Source: a virus (Duplodnaviria > Heunggongvirae > Uroviricota > Caudoviricetes). From it: 11,080 nt of DNA. Position numbers and translations under genes: made by a program. The notes under the pieces were generated by a model. That model made no database searches. It saw nothing but the letters and a program-made list of their open reading frames with translations, and was not told the DNA's origin. Location of the stretch: IMG/VR virus record IMGVR_UViG_2778261641_000016. One strand, written 5' to 3'. Positions 3,142 through 11,080 of the stretch are shown piece after piece. Numbering within the stretch: position 1 is the first letter of the stretch; each line of letters opens with the position of its first letter.

Positions 3142-3702
3142 TTATAAGTCCATCTCATTGATCACACGGCTAACGGCTTGCTTGTCTAAATCCAGATAGC
3201 GCCTGGTGTCAGTGATGTTGCTGTGATTAAGCACGGTCATAGCTAAAGCGATGTTGTTTGCTGAACGCTTGTAGATGGCATTCCCGCCAGCTTTGCGGAA
3301 GCTGTGAGCTGATACAGTGCCATGAATACCGATAGCTTTAGCGGCCTCTGCGATCTGCTTGCTCACTTCTTCGCGTCGTACAGGCGCTTGCTTGTTCATT
3401 GATCGGTTACGCTGGCTTCTGAACACATGCACATCATGCGGATACTCAGCACGGCGACGAGCAATCATCTGCACCACTGGAGCAGGGAGAGTGAGGGCTT
3501 TACGCTTCCCTGTCTTCTGTTCTTCTATGTCAATCTCACCGTTGATCACTTCGTCGAAGCGTAACGCTACGGCATCCCCCACACGCAGTACAGCGGCTTG
3601 CATCATTAACGTAACGTCAGCTATCAGGCTCTTGTTATGAGCGTTTAGCCACTCCCTGATCGCTTTGGCTTGCTGTTCGTCTAACACTACTGCTCTGTTC
3701 AA
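3142..3702 (-). CDS. small tyrosine recombinase (catalytic domain only; FimB/FimE-size integrase/invertase, or truncated integrase)
   Basis: Product carries the catalytic signature in order: Arg in VLRVGDAVALRFDEV, HxxR in HSFRK, and HSNITDTRRY near the C-terminus. Probable start TTG at 3702 after SD GGGAGGG; the track start at 3774 is also TTG but has no SD. There is no N-terminal arm/core-binding domain. Confidence 0.65.
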   Translation of the reverse strand: MNRAVVLDEQQAKAIREWLNAHNKSLIADVTLMMQAAVLRVGDAVALRFDEVINGEIDIEEQKTGKRKALTLPAPVVQMIARRRAEYPHDVHVFRSQRNRSMNKQAPVRREEVSKQIAEAAKAIGIHGTVSAHSFRKAGGNAIYKRSANNIALAMTVLNHSNITDTRRYLDLDKQAVSRVINEMDL

Positions 3703-3799
3703 TTTACCCTCCCATAAAGACACACATCTAAACTCAACGAAACAAACAATATGATCAATTTCAGTAAGTTGCAATATAAATGATCAAAAATCGAACTGT

Positions 3800-4009
3800 C
3801 TTGTGTGTGGTAAATGGCGCGATTGCGTCCAGTGCTTAACGACCTCCAGGGCCGCCTCCAGATCGAAAATTTCTTCTCCTCTAAATATCTTGAACAAAAT
3901 CATGATGTTGGCATTTATAAACATGTGTTTGAACATTGCCAAATCCTCAACTCTGCACGAAGAACAGCGGCAACAGCGGAACATCACACTACCAATGCTT
4001 GTGTGTGGT
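3800..4009. repeat. pair of 12-bp direct repeats CTTGTGTGTGGT (3800-3811 and 3998-4009)
   Basis: Exact 12-mer present twice, 198 bp apart, directly upstream of the recombinase gene. Confidence 0.4.
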
Positions 4010-4080
4010 TATTGTCTATCTCATTGATTTAAATCTGATAAATGTAAGGTTGTTAGGCGAGGGCGGGGCTAACCTGCCTG

Positions 4081-4109
4081 TATGCACAAATTATGCGGAG
4101 TTTATGCAC
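4081..4109 (+). repeat. three TATGC(A/G) direct repeats phased at 11 bp (iteron-like)
   Basis: TATGCAC at 4081, TATGCGG at 4092, TATGCAC at 4103, with exact helical-turn spacing, directly after a GC box GGCGAGGGCGGGG (4056-4068). Confidence 0.4.
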
Positions 4110-4460
4110 TTGAAACTGAGTGTGTAATGAAATGATTAGAATGCTAATCAATTGGTGGATTTTGGCATGAAAAAGAAACATCGTTTCATTTTAGAAAACT
4201 CGTTCAGCACATTGCACCTGTCATGAAACTCCTCATTGTGGACAATGATCGCTGTGAGCCGCATGGCGCAAGGCTTTACGCAAAGTGAGTGATGGTTACT
4301 ATCTTGCTGACTATGGCAACTTTACCCATGTAACAACGGCAATCTTTACCTGTCATTTAAGATAGGCTTAGCTATGATTATCGTGTTGTTTTGATAGGAA
4401 TAACCTCTCGTTACTCTTAGTGTTGTTGCATGGATGAATCAGAGTTAGTTGGGGGCGTTA

Positions 4461-4541
4461 TACATCAAAATGATGTATAGATGCATGGGATACGCATCAA
4501 ATTGATGTATGGATCGGCAAACTACACATCAAATTGATGTT
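4461..4541. promoter_or_regulatory. array of three inverted-repeat sites CATCA-N3-TGATG phased at 32 bp (operator-like)
   Basis: tACATCAAAATGATGTa (centre 4469), cGCATCAAATTGATGTa (centre 4501), cACATCAAATTGATGTt (centre 4533). Half-site copies recur at the downstream promoters. Confidence 0.5.
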
Positions 4542-5091
4542 CTATACAAAGAGATTCTAAAAGCGATCTCTAAAAGAGAGCTTTTAGAAGATCTTGTTAA
4601 AGATTCGCTTTGCTGGCGCGTATCGCCTGGCAAGTGACCTGATTCGCCTTTGGGGGCTACTCGGTCAGCCGCTCACGACGCAGCGTAGCGCATCTGTCTG
4701 TGATTGTGCCAGGGCTTCGCCCTCGTGAAACGAGGCACAGAAGCTATGCGCCGTGTGCGCAATGTCTTTCAGCATAACTTCTGCCTGTCTTCCATGCTCC
4801 GCATTCATCCATGCAAAGTTAGCCCACGGCTAAGGATTCACTGGTCGCTGATGGCTCCAGTTCATCCAGCCTCAATCCAATACCATCACCTACTATCCTG
4901 ATAACTAACGTTATCCCTCAGTAGTTGTGCTATTGGTTTCGGGAGTAAGTGCCAGAGGGCGGCGGTAACGCAAACGGAACGCCCCAGACGCGCTGAGAGC
5001 GAATTTGAGAGGATAGGGAGGGGATTGCAACTCTCAGGCTTTCAAACCTGTTAGAAAGCGATAGACCGCGTTTTATGATGACATGAATGAA

Positions 5092-5120
5092 TTGATCACA
5101 ACGTGGAAATGCGCTATAAT
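5092..5120 (+). promoter_or_regulatory. sigma70-like promoter (TTGATC - 17 bp - TATAAT)
   Basis: -35 TTGATC at 5092-5097, 17-nt spacer, perfect -10 TATAAT at 5115-5120; points into the downstream operon. Confidence 0.5.
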
Positions 5121-5142
5121 TTGAAAGGGATTTAAATAAGTG

Positions 5143-5171
5143 TTGACATTTAAATCATTTCATGTTAAAGT
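5143..5171 (+). promoter_or_regulatory. second tandem sigma70-like promoter (TTGACA - 17 bp - TAAAGT with TG extension)
   Basis: Perfect -35 TTGACA at 5143-5148, 17-nt spacer, -10 TAAAGT at 5166-5171 preceded by TGt. The half-site AAATGATGTA (5172-5181) sits at the predicted transcription start. Confidence 0.45.
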
Positions 5172-5266
5172 AAATGATGTAGGGTAATGAAAGCATTCAT
5201 CCCGTCCTCATCTCAGGCATCCAGCCTAACGCAAACAATCCAACTTACACCGCACTATCAGGCAAC

Positions 5267-5515
5267 GTGATTAACGTTCTCCCTGGATGGTGTTTCTGTG
5301 TTTCTAACGCAAGGAGAACCAAAATTAAGTATTTTAATCCAGAACTTGTCTTCGAGGCTTTAAAGGCCGGAAGCCAGACGCGAAATGCAATAAACAGCCA
5401 GCGAGCAGCCGCACAACGGCAAGGATATTTCGAACACGCTGAAAGATTGCGTAAAGGAATCGAACTTTACGATCAATGGAAAGCTGAACAGGCTGAAACC
5501 ACCACCAACGAATAA
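5267..5515 (+). CDS. hypothetical protein; start codon uncertain
   Basis: Open frame in track from GTG 5267 to TAA 5513-5515. A strong SD AAGGAGAA (5311-5318) lies inside it but no in-frame ATG/GTG/TTG follows within 15 nt; only ATT at 5325. Confidence 0.35.
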   Translation: MINVLPGWCFCVSNARRTKIKYFNPELVFEALKAGSQTRNAINSQRAAAQRQGYFEHAERLRKGIELYDQWKAEQAETTTNE

Positions 5516-7024: not shown

Positions 7025-7408
7025 ATGGGACGAAAAGAACGAAGTAACCTTGTTAGAATCGAAAAAGCCACACGCATCAGCAAACGTAAATACACCTCTT
7101 CTCTACAAGACCTCGCACGAGAGTCTATTCCTGGTGAGATGGTGACAACTATTAAAGAATATCCCGCAGTAGTACCAAATGGATTAGAGTTTGAACTATT
7201 GCAGGATGTTCTATCGTCAACGGATAACGTTTATTACAAACCACGACGCAGACGCGAATATATTATAGATAGTAGCCATCTCAAGAAATGGCAAATAGCA
7301 GGATTTGAACATTACGCCGATTATATTGGGTATTGTCAAACCTGGGGGCTATCCCAGCACACACAAGAGTTTGATATTCTCTTTGACGACAAGGAAAACA
7401 ATGAATAA
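7025..7408 (+). CDS. hypothetical protein (127 aa), basic N-terminus
   Basis: ATG 7025 is 5 nt after GAGG (7016-7019). Its stop overlaps the next start (ATGAATAA). Confidence 0.5.
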   Translation: MGRKERSNLVRIEKATRISKRKYTSSLQDLARESIPGEMVTTIKEYPAVVPNGLEFELLQDVLSSTDNVYYKPRRRREYIIDSSHLKKWQIAGFEHYADYIGYCQTWGLSQHTQEFDILFDDKENNE

Positions 7409-7739
7409 TAAAACTATGGACACAGTGAACACCCTAATTAACTCTTTCCACGACAACTGGCATTTACCAACCTTACAGCTTGTTAATGCAGCGTGGCGTG
7501 AGAGAACGCCCTCCGCGCTTCTGGAAGCGGTGCAATACACTGAACAGGCAATCACTGCCCTTGAACATCTGCAAACGTCTGTAGCTCGTTTGGTGCAGCG
7601 TGACGGCAGTTCGATCACACCAGAAGAAGCGTGGCGTGTAGCTAATGACCTTGAGGAGCTTGCTTGCTCTCTGCAATACATCACCGTTGAACTCGGAGAG
7701 CTTTCCATCCAGATCGCGGAAGAATGCGCCATAACATAA
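7401..7739 (+). CDS. hypothetical protein (112 aa)
   Basis: ATG 7401 is 5 nt after AAGGA (7391-7395), in frame with track ORF 7305..7739. The longer track start has no SD. Stop TAA 7737-7739. Confidence 0.55.
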   Translation: MNNKTMDTVNTLINSFHDNWHLPTLQLVNAAWRERTPSALLEAVQYTEQAITALEHLQTSVARLVQRDGSSITPEEAWRVANDLEELACSLQYITVELGELSIQIAEECAIT

Positions 7740-7754
7740 AAGTTACTAAATGTC

Positions 7755-7783
7755 TTGACATTATGTGCTATATGTGTCATAAT
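7755..7783 (+). promoter_or_regulatory. near-consensus sigma70 promoter (TTGACA - 17 bp - TGtCATAAT)
   Basis: Perfect -35 TTGACA at 7755-7760, 17-nt spacer, extended -10 TGtCATAAT (7775-7783). It starts 16 bp after the stop of the upstream operon. Confidence 0.6.
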
Positions 7784-7789
7784 GAGTTA

Positions 7790-8334
7790 TAGGGTAAGTA
7801 TTCGAATCACTTCACCCTCGTATGTCAATACGCACTCCTTGAGAATGCCGTTCCCATAGCGGCATTCTCTCCCTCTGAATGCTATTTCTGAAAGTGTTGG
7901 TTCTTTGTCTTGTTTGTTCCGAAGGAATGCGCGGGATGTAATATCTCGTTGTGTTGGTATTGCATCGCAATCACCGCGCATCTCCGACTTTTTCAGAAAG
8001 GGCATTCGCTCTTTGCTCATTCATTCCGTTAGGATGAATGTAGTCAGACTGAATAAACGCCGTCAGCGGTAGTTACGTTCAGGCTGGCAATCTCTTATTA
8101 CTATTCCAGTGGTGATATTGAGATTCCATTCCCACTTCTCGCCATGACAGAAGGGCTTCTGTTTTGAAGTGGGAGCAATGACGGGCGATCCTACTTCTGT
8201 TATTCGTAACAGTTGCGCCCTTCATTTTTTCAAGAAGCCATTCTTTAACATCATAATCCTCCGAAACGAAAATGATTTTAACAGAATGCTTTCTAACAAG
8301 GGCATATTCTCCAGGGGCTTAATCGCCCCTTTTT
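7790..8334 (+). ncRNA. candidate ~545-nt non-coding leader transcript (promoter to intrinsic terminator); speculative
   Basis: No plus-strand ORF of 60 aa or more between the promoter and the terminator. Contains a perfect 10-bp stem hairpin (7841-7850 / 7860-7869). Only short ORFs without credible SD. Confidence 0.3.
8313..8334 (+). terminator. rho-independent terminator
   Basis: GGGGC-TTAATC-GCCCC stem-loop (8314-8329) followed directly by TTTTT (8330-8334). Confidence 0.6.
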
Positions 8335-8405
8335 AACAATCTGCATGTAACACTTCCGTTATCAATGGAAGGATAAACGCAGTTATAACGCGAAGGAACA
8401 ACACA

Positions 8406-8621
8406 ATGTTCTTAATAAACAATCGCGACCGAATCCTAAAATACAAATCCGAAGTGATTCAAGTTAATCCTGAGTTAATAGCTAAAGTGGCTGAAATGGC
8501 AGGATGTACCGTTGAAGAAATAGAAAAAGCTGTAGACCAGTATTTCCCTTCTGAGGACACACCTCAACTTAGTATGCAGGAACGGATCGCAATCAAATCC
8601 AAGGAAATCAAACAACAATGA
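8406..8621 (+). CDS. small hypothetical protein (71 aa), first gene of the head operon
   Basis: ATG 8406 is 7 nt after SD GAAGGAA. Its stop overlaps the start of the next gene (ATGA), implying translational coupling. Confidence 0.55.
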   Translation: MFLINNRDRILKYKSEVIQVNPELIAKVAEMAGCTVEEIEKAVDQYFPSEDTPQLSMQERIAIKSKEIKQQ

Positions 8622-8977
8622 TTGTAGACCTAACCGAACTTTTCCCAATTCGTAAGAGTTTCACTGACGTATTGAGCTACGCCACTGATTCTTTTGCAGT
8701 CGTAGAAGGCCGTGTTTTCGACCTGCCAGCAGATATTGAATGCGGCGATGTTATCGGCGCTGATGGCGCTCTATACACCTCCGGCGATGATGCCTTTGTG
8801 GTGGTAAGTGATTTCGTGAGTGCTGGCGACGGTAAAACCGTGAATGTCCTACGTGCGCCTAATGTTGGTAGCTTCGTAGCACTGAAAGCCGACAACCTGC
8901 ACGCAGCTAATCACGCCGCAGCTATCACCACGCTCGAATCCAAAGGGTTCGTATGCCGTCCATTCTTCACCTCTTAA
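8618..8977 (+). CDS. probable phage head decoration protein (119 aa)
   Basis: Gly/Ala/Asp/Val-rich small protein encoded immediately upstream of the major capsid gene, the same position as gpD before gpE in lambda-like heads. Assignment rests on position and composition, not on recognised sequence identity. Confidence 0.5.
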   Translation: MIVDLTELFPIRKSFTDVLSYATDSFAVVEGRVFDLPADIECGDVIGADGALYTSGDDAFVVVSDFVSAGDGKTVNVLRAPNVGSFVALKADNLHAANHAAAITTLESKGFVCRPFFTS

Positions 8978-8993
8978 TCAAGGAAGATAAATA

Positions 8994-10025
8994 ATGAGTA
9001 AAATCGCAATTGGGCGTGAGATGGTCGATTTAGCGCCAATCTTCCAGGCTCTGCCGGAACGTAACTATCTTATGAATGCCCTCGACCTATTCGACGGGGT
9101 AGGTGTTCAGAATCCGAAAGTGGTGGTGACACAGCTTCTGGATGATAACTACAGCCTGTTTAACACCCCGCAGAGCCGTTATTCATCAAACCACGACACT
9201 ACCGCGCGTCAGAATGGCAAAGAATACCTTATCGAGATTCCTTGGTTTGCAAGGGAAGATGAGTTTAAACCTGTAGACGTACAAGGCCGCAGAGTGCAGG
9301 GAACGGACTACGAGCAAACCGTTACCGACCTGTACACCGAATACACTGGCAAACATAAGATTGCTTATCTGCGTACCCGTGAGTCTTACCTGGCCCGTGC
9401 TCTGTTCAAAGGTGAAGTTTATACGCCTGCAACTGATGACCTACTGATCTCTTATGCTGAACTGTTCGGTGTGGTGCCAATGACAGCCAGCGTGAGCACA
9501 GCGACAGCGGCACAGGATTTTGATGCGATCTTAGACAAAGTTCAGGCTGCCGCAGGTGGATTGGCTGGACAGATTGAACGAGTGATCGTATTCGCTAAAC
9601 CTGCTGCATTTAGCCAGATTCGCTTCTCTGACAGTATGTCTAAGGCGTTCCAGTATGTAGCGCCATATGACGACCGTAACCTATTCTACCAGCGTCACGA
9701 GCTTCTCCCTGGTGTTAGTACGTTTAGCCTACCTGGTGCGCCTATCGACATTGTTAAAGTGACAGATCCGCTGATCCTTGCACAGATGCCAGATGATGCT
9801 GACATGGTGGCGGTTCCGGTGTTCAGTAAAGGCACAAATGCTTATCAGAACATCTACGGCGCTGCCTCTGGTAACTTTGCGCTGATCGATGCTGCACCTG
9901 CTGAATACTACTCTTGGGGCTACCTGAGCGAGCGCGGCGATGCTTACCACGTTATGCACGAAAACAGCGCATTACCAGTGAACCATGCGTTAGGTATGCA
10001 GGTGAAGATCACCATCACTGCTTAA
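8994..10025 (+). CDS. phage major capsid protein, lambda gpE-like (343 aa)
   Basis: ATG 8994 after AAGGAAG. Length matches the 341-aa lambda E protein, and local blocks (ALFKGEVY, VIVFAKP...F) resemble E-family blocks as I recall them. It follows the decoration-like gene. Confidence 0.75.
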   Translation: MSKIAIGREMVDLAPIFQALPERNYLMNALDLFDGVGVQNPKVVVTQLLDDNYSLFNTPQSRYSSNHDTTARQNGKEYLIEIPWFAREDEFKPVDVQGRRVQGTDYEQTVTDLYTEYTGKHKIAYLRTRESYLARALFKGEVYTPATDDLLISYAELFGVVPMTASVSTATAAQDFDAILDKVQAAAGGLAGQIERVIVFAKPAAFSQIRFSDSMSKAFQYVAPYDDRNLFYQRHELLPGVSTFSLPGAPIDIVKVTDPLILAQMPDDADMVAVPVFSKGTNAYQNIYGAASGNFALIDAAPAEYYSWGYLSERGDAYHVMHENSALPVNHALGMQVKITITA

Positions 10026-10088: not shown

Positions 10089-10121
10089 GGGAACATCTCC
10101 CCAGTGTTCCCGCCCTTTTTT
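10089..10121 (+). terminator. probable intrinsic terminator after the capsid gene
   Basis: GGGAACA-(9 nt loop)-TGTTCCC stem (10089-10111), then GCCC and TTTTTT (10116-10121). Confidence 0.45.
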
Positions 10122-10144
10122 ATTTCCAGAATGAGGAAAGATAA

Positions 10145-10342
10145 ATGCAAGTGATTGTAAAAAGCGCGGGGCTTCACCTCGCCGTAAATGCTGAAACAGC
10201 AGAAGAGTTATTAAATCTGGCGGGAGTGTGTCGTGTGCTTGAAATAGATCACGGTCATCTACGTCAGTTATTACATCGTGGGCGTAGTGTATCAGATGCA
10301 CTTAATTATCTGGTGAGTAAAAAAGGCGGTGGCGATGCTTGA
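10145..10342 (+). CDS. hypothetical protein (65 aa)
   Basis: ATG 10145 after strong SD GAGGAAAG. Its stop overlaps the start region of the next ORF. Confidence 0.5.
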   Translation: MQVIVKSAGLHLAVNAETAEELLNLAGVCRVLEIDHGHLRQLLHRGRSVSDALNYLVSKKGGGDA

Positions 10343-10799
10343 GATTAATACAAGTAAGATCGTCAACACCGTAACTTTCACCGTTGACAAAGGGAGTATT
10401 GCAGAGGCTAAGGCCGCAGCGGATAACCTTCAAAAGCACTTCCAGAAAATAGCCGATCCCAAGATTCGCTTCCAGGATCTGAAGCAGCGCAGACAGAAAG
10501 CCCGTCAACAAGCCGATGATGCACGTTTTAATGATAAGCCTCGTGATACGAAGGAAATGAAAGCCCAACGTGCGGCGGAGAAGCAGAAAGCCAGGGATGA
10601 AAAGGCCAATCTGAAAGCGAAGCAGCAGCTACAGAAGCGCCAAGAGACAGCCGAGCTTAAACTTCGCCATGCAGGGCTACAAGTGTCAGGAATTAAAGGT
10701 AAATACGGGCTTGATCCTAAATCTCAGTATGAAGCGTTACGTTATATTCATCAGCAAAGCGAAGAGTTTGCGAAAAGGGTATTAACTTTCGCAGCCTGA
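10329..10799 (+). CDS. hypothetical protein, highly charged Lys/Arg/Glu/Gln-rich central region (156 aa)
   Basis: Track ORF overlapping the upstream stop (start ATG 10329 or 10335). Its last ~8 codons are read out of frame from invertase-homologous DNA. Confidence 0.5.
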   Translation: MAMLEINTSKIVNTVTFTVDKGSIAEAKAAADNLQKHFQKIADPKIRFQDLKQRRQKARQQADDARFNDKPRDTKEMKAQRAAEKQKARDEKANLKAKQQLQKRQETAELKLRHAGLQVSGIKGKYGLDPKSQYEALRYIHQQSEEFAKRVLTFAA

Positions 10800-11080
10800 C
10801 CGACAGCATAGATACGTCTTCACCAATGGGACGCTTTTTCTTCCATGTCATGGGCGCACTTGCAGAAATGGAAAGGGAGCTGATAGTCGAACGTACCAGG
10901 GCGGGATTGGCTGCGGCTCGTGAAGAAGGGCGAATAGGTGGGCGTCGATCAAAGCTAACTGATGAACAGTGGGCGCAGGCAGGCAGGTTGATTGCAGCAG
11001 GTGAATCACGACAGCGTGTGGCATTAATTTACGATGTTGGGATATCGACGCTATATAAAAAATTTCCGGCAACCAGGTAA
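10772..11080 (+). pseudogene. serine DNA invertase (Pin/Gin/Hin family) C-terminal fragment, lacking the catalytic N-terminus; runs off the window end
   Basis: Translation EKGINFRSLTDSIDTSSPMGRFFFHVMGALAEMERELIVERTRAGLAAAREEGRIGGRRSKLTDEQWAQAGRLIAAGESRQRVALIYDVGISTLYKKFPATR closely matches the C-terminal half of e14 Pin as I remember it. The frame is closed by TGA at 10730-10732 and no serine-nucleophile N-terminal domain exists in any frame upstream. Confidence 0.65.

Follow-up and report, generated by a model that had tools for sequence, protein, structure and literature searches.

What fills the roughly 650 bases between the end of one gene (7739) and the start of the next (8406), directly upstream of the capsid genes, in what appears to be a satellite-like mobile element of enterobacteria? 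The question is raised by IMG/VR record IMGVR_UViG_2778261641_000016 (Caudoviricetes), the whole 11,080-nucleotide (nt) stretch of which was analysed and is called the window here. A reading of its letters by themselves (the sequence-only reading) had noticed a strong promoter, a terminator and, between them, about 545 nt with no credible open reading frame (ORF), and had proposed an antitermination leader of the lambdoid late type or a stand-alone regulatory RNA. Comparative sequence analysis makes it practically certain, in our judgement, that positions 7755–8335 are a gene for a highly structured non-coding RNA of ~545 nt (7790–8335, + strand) with a strong, activator-independent σ70 promoter and an intrinsic terminator, the 3′ end of the RNA being predicted in the U-tract at 8330–8335.

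Homologous loci, designated by L numbers, were collected with a 21-base pattern derived from the invariant hairpin P3 of this RNA, which returned 8 viral and 30 metagenomic loci. A second pattern (CAATCACCGYGCAYNTYC) gave mostly chance hits but added four real loci, and protein-anchored look-ups contributed copies from Klebsiella aerogenes, Buttiauxella and Atlantibacter. The first pattern scans together with L002 yielded 33 unique full-length sequences, to which eight further loci were added later. These first 33 homologues are 60–100% identical to the window and their RNAs are 520–641 nt long; the RNA is known so far from Enterobacteriaceae only. As the family of p127, a protein encoded nearby, has 165 protein clusters in Enterobacteriaceae, one of which is present in 545 collection blocks, the element is, by these counts, common in these bacteria.

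The predicted fold is far more stable than expected by chance. The minimum free energy (MFE) of the + strand is −195.6 kcal/mol (z = −9.7), compared to −164.4 kcal/mol (z = −5.3) for the − strand. Applied to an alignment of 29 sequences made by sequence only (A2), RNAalifold returned 60 pairs, 17 of which carry double compensatory changes. Covariance of the structure across homologous loci, which the sequence-only reading had put forward as a check, was examined by projecting the 189 pairs of the window MFE structure onto the sequence-only alignment (28 distinct sequences), with the pairing partner slid by 1–3 columns as a control. In this projection, 82.6% of the cells are paired as opposed to 43–47% in the slid controls, double-change cells number 231 versus 54–112, and the covariation score is 0.178 versus 0.06–0.076. 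None of 500 shuffles attained the observed percentage paired, the number of double-change cells or the covariation score, and changes on both sides of the helix are found in 41 of the 189 pairs. Furthermore, when the two main lineages were aligned and folded separately, the same architecture of the 5′ domain emerged from different sequences.

Within the predicted pairs, G–U cells outnumber A–C cells by about three to one (660 versus 230), and the fold therefore exists on the + strand only. The locus thus combines the three properties of a structured non-coding RNA, namely compensatory substitutions, strand-specific G–U pairs and a lack of coding signal. It belongs to no family that we could recognise: a cmscan of the whole window on both strands against the 4227 families of Rfam 15 (E ≤ 1) gave no match to the RNA, including the GOLLD, ROOL, OLE, HEARO, C4/CI antisense RNA, riboswitch, 6S and tmRNA models, and the sole hit at that threshold is a chance microRNA match elsewhere in the window. 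Membership of a known RNA family was rejected on this ground.

Could the region instead be the remains of a protein-coding gene, framed by a chance array of promoter-like and terminator-like motifs? The longest ORF on its + strand encodes 55 amino acids (aa), those on the − strand reach 77 and 48 aa, and the latter two, together with a number of promoter-like hits that is near chance for the window, are what such an explanation could build on. However, no ORF is conserved in frame, strand or position among the 29 homologues, so the earlier remark that these ~545 nt hold no credible ORF has stood. The lengths of the indels modulo 3 are distributed 324/135/32, i.e., 459 of the 491 are not multiples of three, and variable columns are spread evenly over the codon phases (125/129/126), which shows no codon periodicity. 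Annotation agrees: in all 13–14 E. coli genomes that carry this DNA, RefSeq leaves the interval from the end of the 112-aa gene (7739) to the start of the 71-aa gene (8406) empty. The proposition raised earlier, that homologous loci might carry an intact gene of which this copy is simply a decayed version, also fails at the level of structure: no such gene is conserved, and the pairing has been preserved through compensatory change. The coding test and the covariation together led us to reject a decayed gene, and we give this explanation virtually no credence.

The window MFE structure consists of three 5′ hairpins (P1–P3), a 5′ domain, a multi-helix 3′ domain and the terminator. P1 (7791–7799 with 7809–7818) contains three compensatory pairs and is followed by P2 (7819–7823 with 7828–7832); this P1/P2 module (7791–7832) is replaced in RNAs of the L006/L012 type. 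The sequence-only reading had pointed out a perfect 10-base-pair hairpin at 7841–7869. This is P3, formed by GAGAATGCCG (7841–7850) and CGGCATTCTC (7860–7869) and counted at 10–12 base pairs among homologues; 93% of its cells are paired, and its sequence hardly changes from one homologue to the next, less than any other part of the region. The 5′ domain (7877–8007) is closed by a long-range helix of 22 pairs, P4 (7877–7900 with 7984–8007), that encloses P5 (7901–7907 with 7920–7926), P6 (7927–7934 with 7974–7981) and P7 (7935–7945 with 7956–7966). Near and far lineages build the helices of this domain from different letters, such as GCGCGG/CCGCGC versus GCACGG/CCGUGC and GAUGUAAUAUC/GGUAUUGCAUC versus UCACAUUAUUAU/GUAGUAGUGUGA.

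A boxA-like stretch, CGCTCTTTG (8007–8015), leads from the 5′ domain to P9 (8018–8027 with 8032–8040), which has four compensatory pairs and an invariant CCGUUAGG loop. The multi-helix junction of the 3′ domain (8043–8303) holds P10 (8043–8088), P11 (8089–8125), P12/P13 (8129–8175), P14/P15 (8177–8226) and P16 (8233–8294). The helices of this junction are paired in 68–94% of cells each and all of them contain compensatory pairs; counted with P9, this part of the molecule has at least five hairpin arms (P9–P16, 8018–8294). A further helix, P8 (8008–8013 with 8298–8303), possibly closes the 3′ domain, for which covariation gives no proof. Natural variants show how the periphery can change. P10 (window equivalent ~8045–8087) is missing from L028 (701–1220) and L039 (6032–6553), and P14/P15 is swapped for a different hairpin of similar size in L006, L010, L011 and L022, which points to peripheral arms that are dispensable or modular and exchangeable. 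In NZ_CP020835.1 (E. coli CFSAN051542, hits H10/H23), an IS1 copy is inserted inside the RNA gene, representing a natural knock-out.

The promoter that the sequence-only reading had described as strong and near-consensus lies where it had been placed: a −35 element TTGACA (7755–7760), a 17-nt spacer and an extended −10 element TGtCATAAT (7775–7783), i.e., hexamers separated by 16–18 nt with a TGn motif, as in extended −10 promoters of the σ70 class. A motif scan of the whole window ranked it (score 11/12 plus TG) at the top of 23 promoter-like sites. As this total is not above chance (18.1 ± 3.3 in shuffles), the significance of the promoter derives from its conservation across homologues. Its position is kept in 34 unique homologues, although their spacer sequences differ and fall into at least five types, and a TTGAC[AT] element located 17–18 nt from a good −10 element, mostly with TG, is found at this place in 30 of the 34. 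The promoter of the L008 lineage reads TTGCAT-17-TGtTAAAGT. Transcription would start at about 7789–7791, and the predicted initial transcribed sequence (A/T)TA(T/A)AGGG is conserved and doubles as the 5′ arm of P1. The likeness of the start-site TATAGGG to a T7-type promoter, judged by eye against the T7 consensus, is confined to −4 to +3 and was dismissed. Operator-like palindromes stand just 5′ of the −35 element (window equivalent ~7730–7755) in L027 (AGTGAATAACTATTCACT), L036 (AGTGAATAATTATTCACT) and L018 (GAATAAGTATTC), where a DNA-binding protein may regulate the RNA promoter; the promoter region of the window itself is free of them.

At the other end, the terminator t1 (8313–8335, + strand) forms a stem AGGGGC/GCCCCT with a UUAAUC loop followed by a U-tract; in DNA letters, GGGGC (8314–8318), TTAATC, GCCCC (8325–8329) and TTTTT (8330–8334), with a hairpin energy of about −11.7 kcal/mol. 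It has the make-up of an intrinsic terminator, a G+C-rich hairpin and then a U-tract with five U. The motif scan did not list it, presumably because the stem was extended by one A–T pair so that four T were left in the tail window. All 34 homologues have t1 (−10 to −17 kcal/mol), and its stem covaries among lineages (GGGGC/GCCCC, GGGGCTAC/GTAGCCC, GGCGAC/GTCGCC). The distance from t1 to the ATG of the first capsid-module gene, p71 (8406), is 71 nt, in keeping with the textbook terminator that had been noted ~70 base pairs before the head operon. The spacer in between (8336–8405) contains a small conserved inverted repeat CTGC…GCAG, an inner hairpin CTTCC…GGAAG and a ribosome-binding site (RBS), GAAGGAA (8391–8397); the motif scan found no σ70 promoter between t1 and p71.

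How is this transcription unit tied to the genes around it? The RNA lies directly 5′ of the capsid module in every locus that is long enough, and this association spans three capsid-module lineages, the capsid proteins of which are 20–55% identical. The most informative loci are L036 and L043. Their nucleotide homology to the window (92%) is confined to 7782–8423 and 7782–8398, respectively, a stretch that runs from the last bases of the −10 element up to the p71 RBS or start codon. The proteins encoded on either side are far more diverged (p127 36%, p112 28%, p71 26% and capsid ~20–24% identical). In L017, L019 and L043 the homology to the window ends at 8398, and the spacer therefore travels with the RNA and not with the capsid genes. 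Similarly, a 38-nt island at 10113–10149, comprising the U-tract of a second terminator (t2), an RBS and the start of p65, is 97% identical in L036 and L043, where its surroundings are beyond nucleotide alignment. These limits point to the RNA, its terminator and the spacer as the unit that is selected or exchanged between elements. The RNA is the most conserved module of the element family; the gene at the p112 position varies from 27 to 95% identity or is not detected, and the RNA stays conserved. Such independence from the proteins of the element suggests that the partner of the RNA is a conserved component of the host or of a helper.

The layout extends further than the RNA itself. Two Pantoea genomes and one metagenome (L070, L071 and L073) carry related elements with capsid proteins 41–44% identical to that of the window. 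Their leaders (L070:4640–5200, L071:4620–5335, L073:4960–5306) show no homology to the RNA with nhmmer or with the covariance model of the 5′ domain (R1), and a homology of these leaders to it was set aside; only the layout is shared. Promoters and terminators occupy the same positions as in the window. The promoters read TTGCAA-17-TGcTATAAT, TTGCAA-17-TGtTATACT and TTGCAT-17-TATAAT, with the extended TG in L070 and L071; the leaders span 290–690 nt without a conserved gene and fold with z = −3.8, −8.9 and −3.6; and one or more terminators stand right before the capsid module. The first transcribed bases, (U)AGGG(U)AAG or AUGGGAG, are similar to those of the window RNA.

The interpretation that we favour, and to which we assign close to even weight when its nut-site version discussed below is counted in, is a cis role for the RNA, as a promoter-proximal leader that gates the structural operon. 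It is preferred because no σ70 promoter lies between t1 and p71, the position of the RNA is constant, the cassette has the limits described above and the layout is kept in distant elements. In the resting element, polymerases arriving from 7790 or from the upstream operon would stop at t1 and the folded RNA would be released. The signal that renders polymerase terminator-resistant or causes t1 to be bypassed would probably be infection by a Stephanstirmvirinae-type helper myophage. Polymerase could then pass t1 and t2 into the capsid and tape-measure genes, which themselves have no σ70 promoters, and the folded RNA would be the platform recognised by a conserved host or helper factor. The second terminator, t2 (10089–10121, + strand), is a strong intrinsic one right after the capsid gene, and only 24 nt separate its U-tract from the p65 start codon; p65 and the tape-measure gene are therefore reachable by read-through alone, and a terminator placed right before the next gene block fits a read-through design.

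Lambda provides the obvious template for such a gate, as its late genes are controlled through pR′, the 6S RNA and tR′ with the antiterminator Q. The element shows the layout of a Q-controlled unit, a constitutive promoter and a short terminated transcript before late genes, and also resembles lambda in having further terminators and a regulatory-type block upstream. It differs in that its RNA is ~545 nt and not 194 nt long and has a conserved, covarying multi-domain fold, in that it is no lambdoid phage and has lytic myophages as candidate helpers, and in that no Q-family antiterminator gene was found beside the promoter when p112 and p127 were compared to four profile and sequence libraries (Pfam, PHROG, NCBIfam, PDB), just as the sequence-only reading had seen no Q-like protein nearby; a novel antiterminator of unrelated sequence may nevertheless exist. 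A Q-controlled unit further has a Q-binding element in its promoter and a σ70-dependent promoter-proximal pause signal, neither of which could be demonstrated for the element. The search for a Q-like, N-like or other known regulator among the neighbours, which comprised these four libraries, two AlphaFold2 models with low predicted local distance difference test scores (pLDDT 56 and 67) and one fold search, produced nothing usable. The earlier analogy to pR′/tR′ thus survives in its layout, namely promoter, terminated RNA and promoterless structural genes, also in distant elements, and is unsupported in its Q mechanism; likewise, of the proposed choice between an antitermination leader and a stand-alone RNA, the shared core, a selected non-coding transcription unit, is strongly supported and the lambdoid Q version is not.

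Several observations weigh against a cis-acting gate. The start site, termination and read-through are all predictions made from the letters of the DNA. A gate of the pR′/tR′ or attenuator kind could do without 18 helices arranged in two multi-helix domains. No known pR′-type leader is nearly as elaborate as this RNA, and such complexity is more typical of RNAs that act as molecules themselves. Family, PDB and fold searches revealed no antiterminator among p112, p127 and p71, variation of the gene just upstream is not mirrored in the RNA, and just 5 of 22 variants have an intact boxA-like element. We noticed no conserved anti-terminator pairing that would compete with t1, although no systematic search for one was made. 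Finally, the constant position of the RNA could simply reflect an overall conserved gene order, and t1 and t2 might serve as ordinary attenuators by which the ratios of expression are set.

These points lend substance to a different explanation, in which the RNA stands alone and acts in trans or as a structural molecule: a decoy or scaffold for a host or helper protein, a ribozyme or a component of a ribonucleoprotein (RNP). In this case, t1 would do no more than terminate the gene and shield the capsid operon, and a helper factor would activate that operon on its own. The possession of its own promoter and terminator, the size of the RNA, its two multi-helix domains and its many covarying helices all agree with this, as does the loss or exchange of peripheral hairpins around a preserved core, a feature of other large RNAs. 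The RNA also surpasses its neighbours by far in conservation and moves as a cassette between elements with very different proteins, which points to a conserved external partner. Satellites and their helpers, moreover, are known to make abundant non-coding RNAs of unexplained role (PMC7567579). However, the RNA is never found apart from the capsid module, the conserved cassette does not end at the terminator but includes the sequence up to the p71 RBS, no promoter is recognisable for the structural genes themselves, and the RNA has no significant complementarity to other parts of the element and no match in Rfam. We regard a trans-acting or structural role as a real possibility, though one that falls clearly short of even. 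If, on the other hand, the region were conserved as a DNA site, it could be a packaging (cos/pac) site recognised by the helper or by p71, or a replication origin. The cos site of lambda is indeed situated just 5′ of the small-terminase and head genes, the modelled p71 may be helix-turn-helix-like, the spacer at 8336–8405 contains a conserved inverted repeat and a segment near 8181 (GACGGGCGATCCT) may loosely resemble lambda cosN. Yet it is the pairing and not the sequence that is conserved, the ~660 G–U cells would be A–C mismatches on the other strand, and a promoter and a terminator bracket the region in all lineages. Iterons at 4459–4540 are a likelier origin. In addition, a blastn search of 50,697 phage genomes found no match to the region, and neither an nhmmer profile nor covariance model R1 detected anything in the head/tail region of a candidate helper, so a cos/pac site or regulatory region shared with phages was rejected. 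A DNA-level function is therefore very unlikely as the main explanation, although a packaging site could overlap part of the region.

Returning to the cis-acting gate, its most specific version is an N/nut system in which the boxA-like stretch at 8007–8015 and P9 form a nut site and the basic protein p127 is N-like and, together with host Nus factors, makes polymerase resistant to t1 and t2. Of the 15 positions of lambda nutR (CGCTCTTACACATTC, read from J02459), 14 agree with CGCTCTTT(A/G)CTCATTC in the element, which contains one additional base and has a hairpin after it; the majority sequence, CGCTCTTTACTCATTC, resembles nutR, and the window has G for A. The P9 stem covaries around its invariant loop, the N-terminus of p127 is conserved and basic and p127 is poorly ordered in its model, and two successive intrinsic terminators follow with no promoters between them. 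Compared by eye, R11, E13 and K14 of p127 appear to fall at the same positions as in lambda N. The likeness to lambda N/nut and to the Nus boxA systems of rrn, suhB and CRISPR arrays (PMC5725501, PMC7665894) thus consists in a boxA-like element and a conserved-loop hairpin in a long untranslated transcript that passes terminators, and in a small basic protein encoded upstream. The boxA consensus is GYTCTTTAANA, and in suhB a double mutation that includes C4T abolishes boxA function (PMC5725501). Compared to this Nus-factor consensus, the element, which reads GCTCTTTGCTC in the window, agrees at no more than 8 of the 10 specified positions; GCTCTTTA is present in just 5 of 22 unique variants, and T occupies boxA position 4 in 11 of the 22. 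Furthermore, the element's boxA is degenerate in most lineages and lies ~218 nt into a folded RNA and not in an open leader, the P9 loop is neither GNRA-like nor of the N-binding type, p127 has no detectable similarity to N proteins, its homologue in L071 lacks the basic N-terminus, and the rest of the RNA would be left unexplained. We did not adopt the boxA/nut lead and keep it as an improbable sub-hypothesis.

Antisense control of the capsid mRNA was also considered. The sole inverted repeat of at least 13 nt that involves the RNA pairs 8070–8084 with 9053–9067 (15 nt) in the capsid gene, and this complementarity seemed to recur in a second capsid lineage. Against an empirical null of all 120-nt windows per locus, the 5′ region of the capsid gene ranks 9/261, 3/189, 42/287, 18/295 and 185/451, i.e., at chance level, and the hairpin that carries the complementary stretch is deleted in L028 and L039. 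Antisense control was rejected.

Other known systems resemble the RNA in part. The immunity leader of satellite P4 produces the CI RNA of the C4 antisense RNA family, which is ~69 nt long and acts by complementarity to sites in the same leader. HK022 put RNAs are ~70-nt two-stem structures that act on the β′ subunit of RNA polymerase and cause constitutive antitermination. A cis-acting, promoter-proximal folded RNA of this kind that acts on host polymerase would explain conservation independent of proteins, but the element RNA is ~545 nt long. AlpA-type Q-like antiterminators are known in prophages and in phage-inducible chromosomal islands (PICIs) of Gram-negative bacteria. There, too, the structural or lysis operon of a mobile element is silenced by a promoter-proximal terminator and released by a processive antiterminator; in contrast, no Phage_AlpA domain was found among the window proteins scanned against Pfam, and the leader of the element is a large conserved RNA. 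The P4 CI RNA is similar in that a satellite's constitutive, structured leader RNA controls premature termination of the satellite's own transcription (PMC7567579), and different in that the RNA described here has neither an Rfam match nor significant complementarity and that structural rather than replication genes would be controlled. Also comparable are the large ornate RNAs GOLLD and ROOL and the abundant ICP1/PLE RNAs (PMC7567579), structured RNAs of 500–800 nt on phage-like elements with their own transcription signals, from which the element RNA differs by its lack of a match to Rfam families, its fixed position before capsid genes and its occurrence, so far, in Enterobacteriaceae only.

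What is new is a large structured RNA family, absent from Rfam, in an apparently undescribed family of satellite-like elements. To our knowledge, large covarying non-coding RNAs are rare, and new ones are very rare in Escherichia, Klebsiella and Enterobacter, which are among the best-studied bacteria; this one occurs in hundreds of contigs and yet is unannotated in RefSeq. Within the element it occupies the decision point at which replication genes give way to particle genes. Should the gate exist, commitment to particle making would be controlled by a 0.5-kb folded RNA rather than by a short leader; should the RNA act in trans, it would make the role of large phage-associated RNAs accessible to genetics. 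A more far-reaching picture, which we consider rather unlikely in full, is that of a helper-sensing switch of undescribed enterobacterial satellites that have their own gpE-type capsid and tape measure and parasitise lytic Stephanstirmvirinae, the RNA binding a factor or polymerase that then reads through two terminators, or else serving as an RNP or structural component of particle production. In any event, the RNA is the best-conserved marker of the element family and could serve to find and classify its members.

The genes on either side of the RNA gave few clues. The penultimate gene of the upstream replication/early operon encodes the small basic protein p127 (7025–7408, + strand), with a conserved N-terminus rich in arginine and lysine (MGRKERSNLVRIEKA) and a central YYKPRRRR stretch with a KPRRRR motif; p127 matched nothing in Pfam, PHROG, NCBIfam or the PDB and its AlphaFold2 model (pLDDT 56) is uninformative, but its composition is possibly that of a nucleic-acid-binding regulator. 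The helical protein p112 (7401–7739, + strand), whose stop codon is 15 nt before the −35 box, has no family or PDB match. Downstream, p71 (8406–8621, + strand), a four-helix and possibly helix-turn-helix protein (AlphaFold2 pLDDT 67), opens the structural module and has no family match and, in one fold search, no significant fold match. It is followed by p119 (8618–8977, + strand), which gave a weak local match only and occupies the position of a head-decoration gene, in synteny with the decoration and major head genes of Klebsiella phage phi1_175008. The major capsid protein (8994–10025, + strand) belongs to the lambda gpE family (Pfam Phage_cap_E, 8.4e-15). It has 46 clusters, the named ones of which are all from Enterobacterales; no close phage relative was found, and it is only distantly related to the capsid protein of Stephanstirmvirinae phages (21% identity). 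Past t2, the window contains p65 and the N-terminal part of a tape-measure-like protein (10145–10799, + strand), the latter at 10329–10799 and cut at ~10775–10800.

The full-length tape-measure homologue, annotated as ‘TolA’, has 614 aa in L001 (L001:11636–13480; PHROG 16051 tape measure, 2.5e-98), and its C-terminal 385 aa are ~40% identical to the tape-measure proteins of Phapecoctavirus, Justusliebigvirus and Klebsiella phage phi1_175008 (Stephanstirmvirinae). These are lytic myophages of ~150 kb in which a decoration gene also precedes the major head gene, and the tape-measure likeness therefore makes them candidate helpers. The capsid genes, which the sequence-only reading had called orphan, are in fact part of a widespread integrative element of 12–13 kb that is integrated next to tRNA-Thr (L002) or tRNA-Leu (L008); strains that carry it include E. 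coli MS6192, MS6193 and AR_0128 and K. aerogenes CP024885. It comprises the short tyrosine recombinase gene, a gene-free stretch of 1.5 kb that holds iterons, the DUF6945/HTH_36 replication module, p127, p112 and the RNA gap, followed by p71, p119, the gpE-family capsid gene, p65, the 614-aa tape-measure homologue and an integrase. Scans of the window and L001 proteins against Pfam, PHROGs and NCBIfam identified the gpE-like capsid, the tape-measure homologue, the DUF6945/HTH_36 module and tyrosine recombinases only; no portal, protease or terminase was identified among them. Marker genes of P4-like satellites (Sid, Psu, Delta, α primase), PICIs (AlpA plus Pri-Rep), capsid-forming PICIs (an HK97 head module with portal, protease and terminase), PLEs and PICMIs were likewise absent from these scanned proteins, in an analysis that covered neither the remainder of the window nor PADLOC. 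Our literature search found no description of the element family and nothing relevant on DUF6945. An own capsid and an own tape measure with no identified portal, protease or terminase do not fit the described satellite families, and we infer that the element, which appears to belong to an undescribed satellite-like family of enterobacteria, depends on a helper.

The window copy is shortened at both ends relative to that of E. coli MS6192 (L001) and has no integrase. It is flanked by a fragment of a tail-fibre-assembly gene (61–225, Caudo_TAP) and by the C-terminal half of a resolvase/invertase (10826–11077); the window ends (1–460 and 10775–11080) could have arisen by rearrangement, by insertion into the tail-fibre region of a prophage or by a join made during assembly. 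The gene-free stretch between the short recombinase gene and the early operon (3775–5267, ~1.5 kb) is unannotated in RefSeq. It contains three 18-nt iterons at 32-nt spacing (4459–4540), which probably mark the origin, and next to them a block (4541–4961) that shares 88% identity with the divergent element L008 and is more stably folded than its shuffles (z = −3.6 on the + strand and −4.9 on the − strand). This block may be another structured RNA or the long − strand leader of the recombinase gene. The tyrosine-recombinase-like protein itself (3142–3774, − strand; 186–210 aa) comprises the catalytic domain only (Pfam Phage_integrase, residues 30–199) and is conserved in the element family besides the full-length integrase at the far end.

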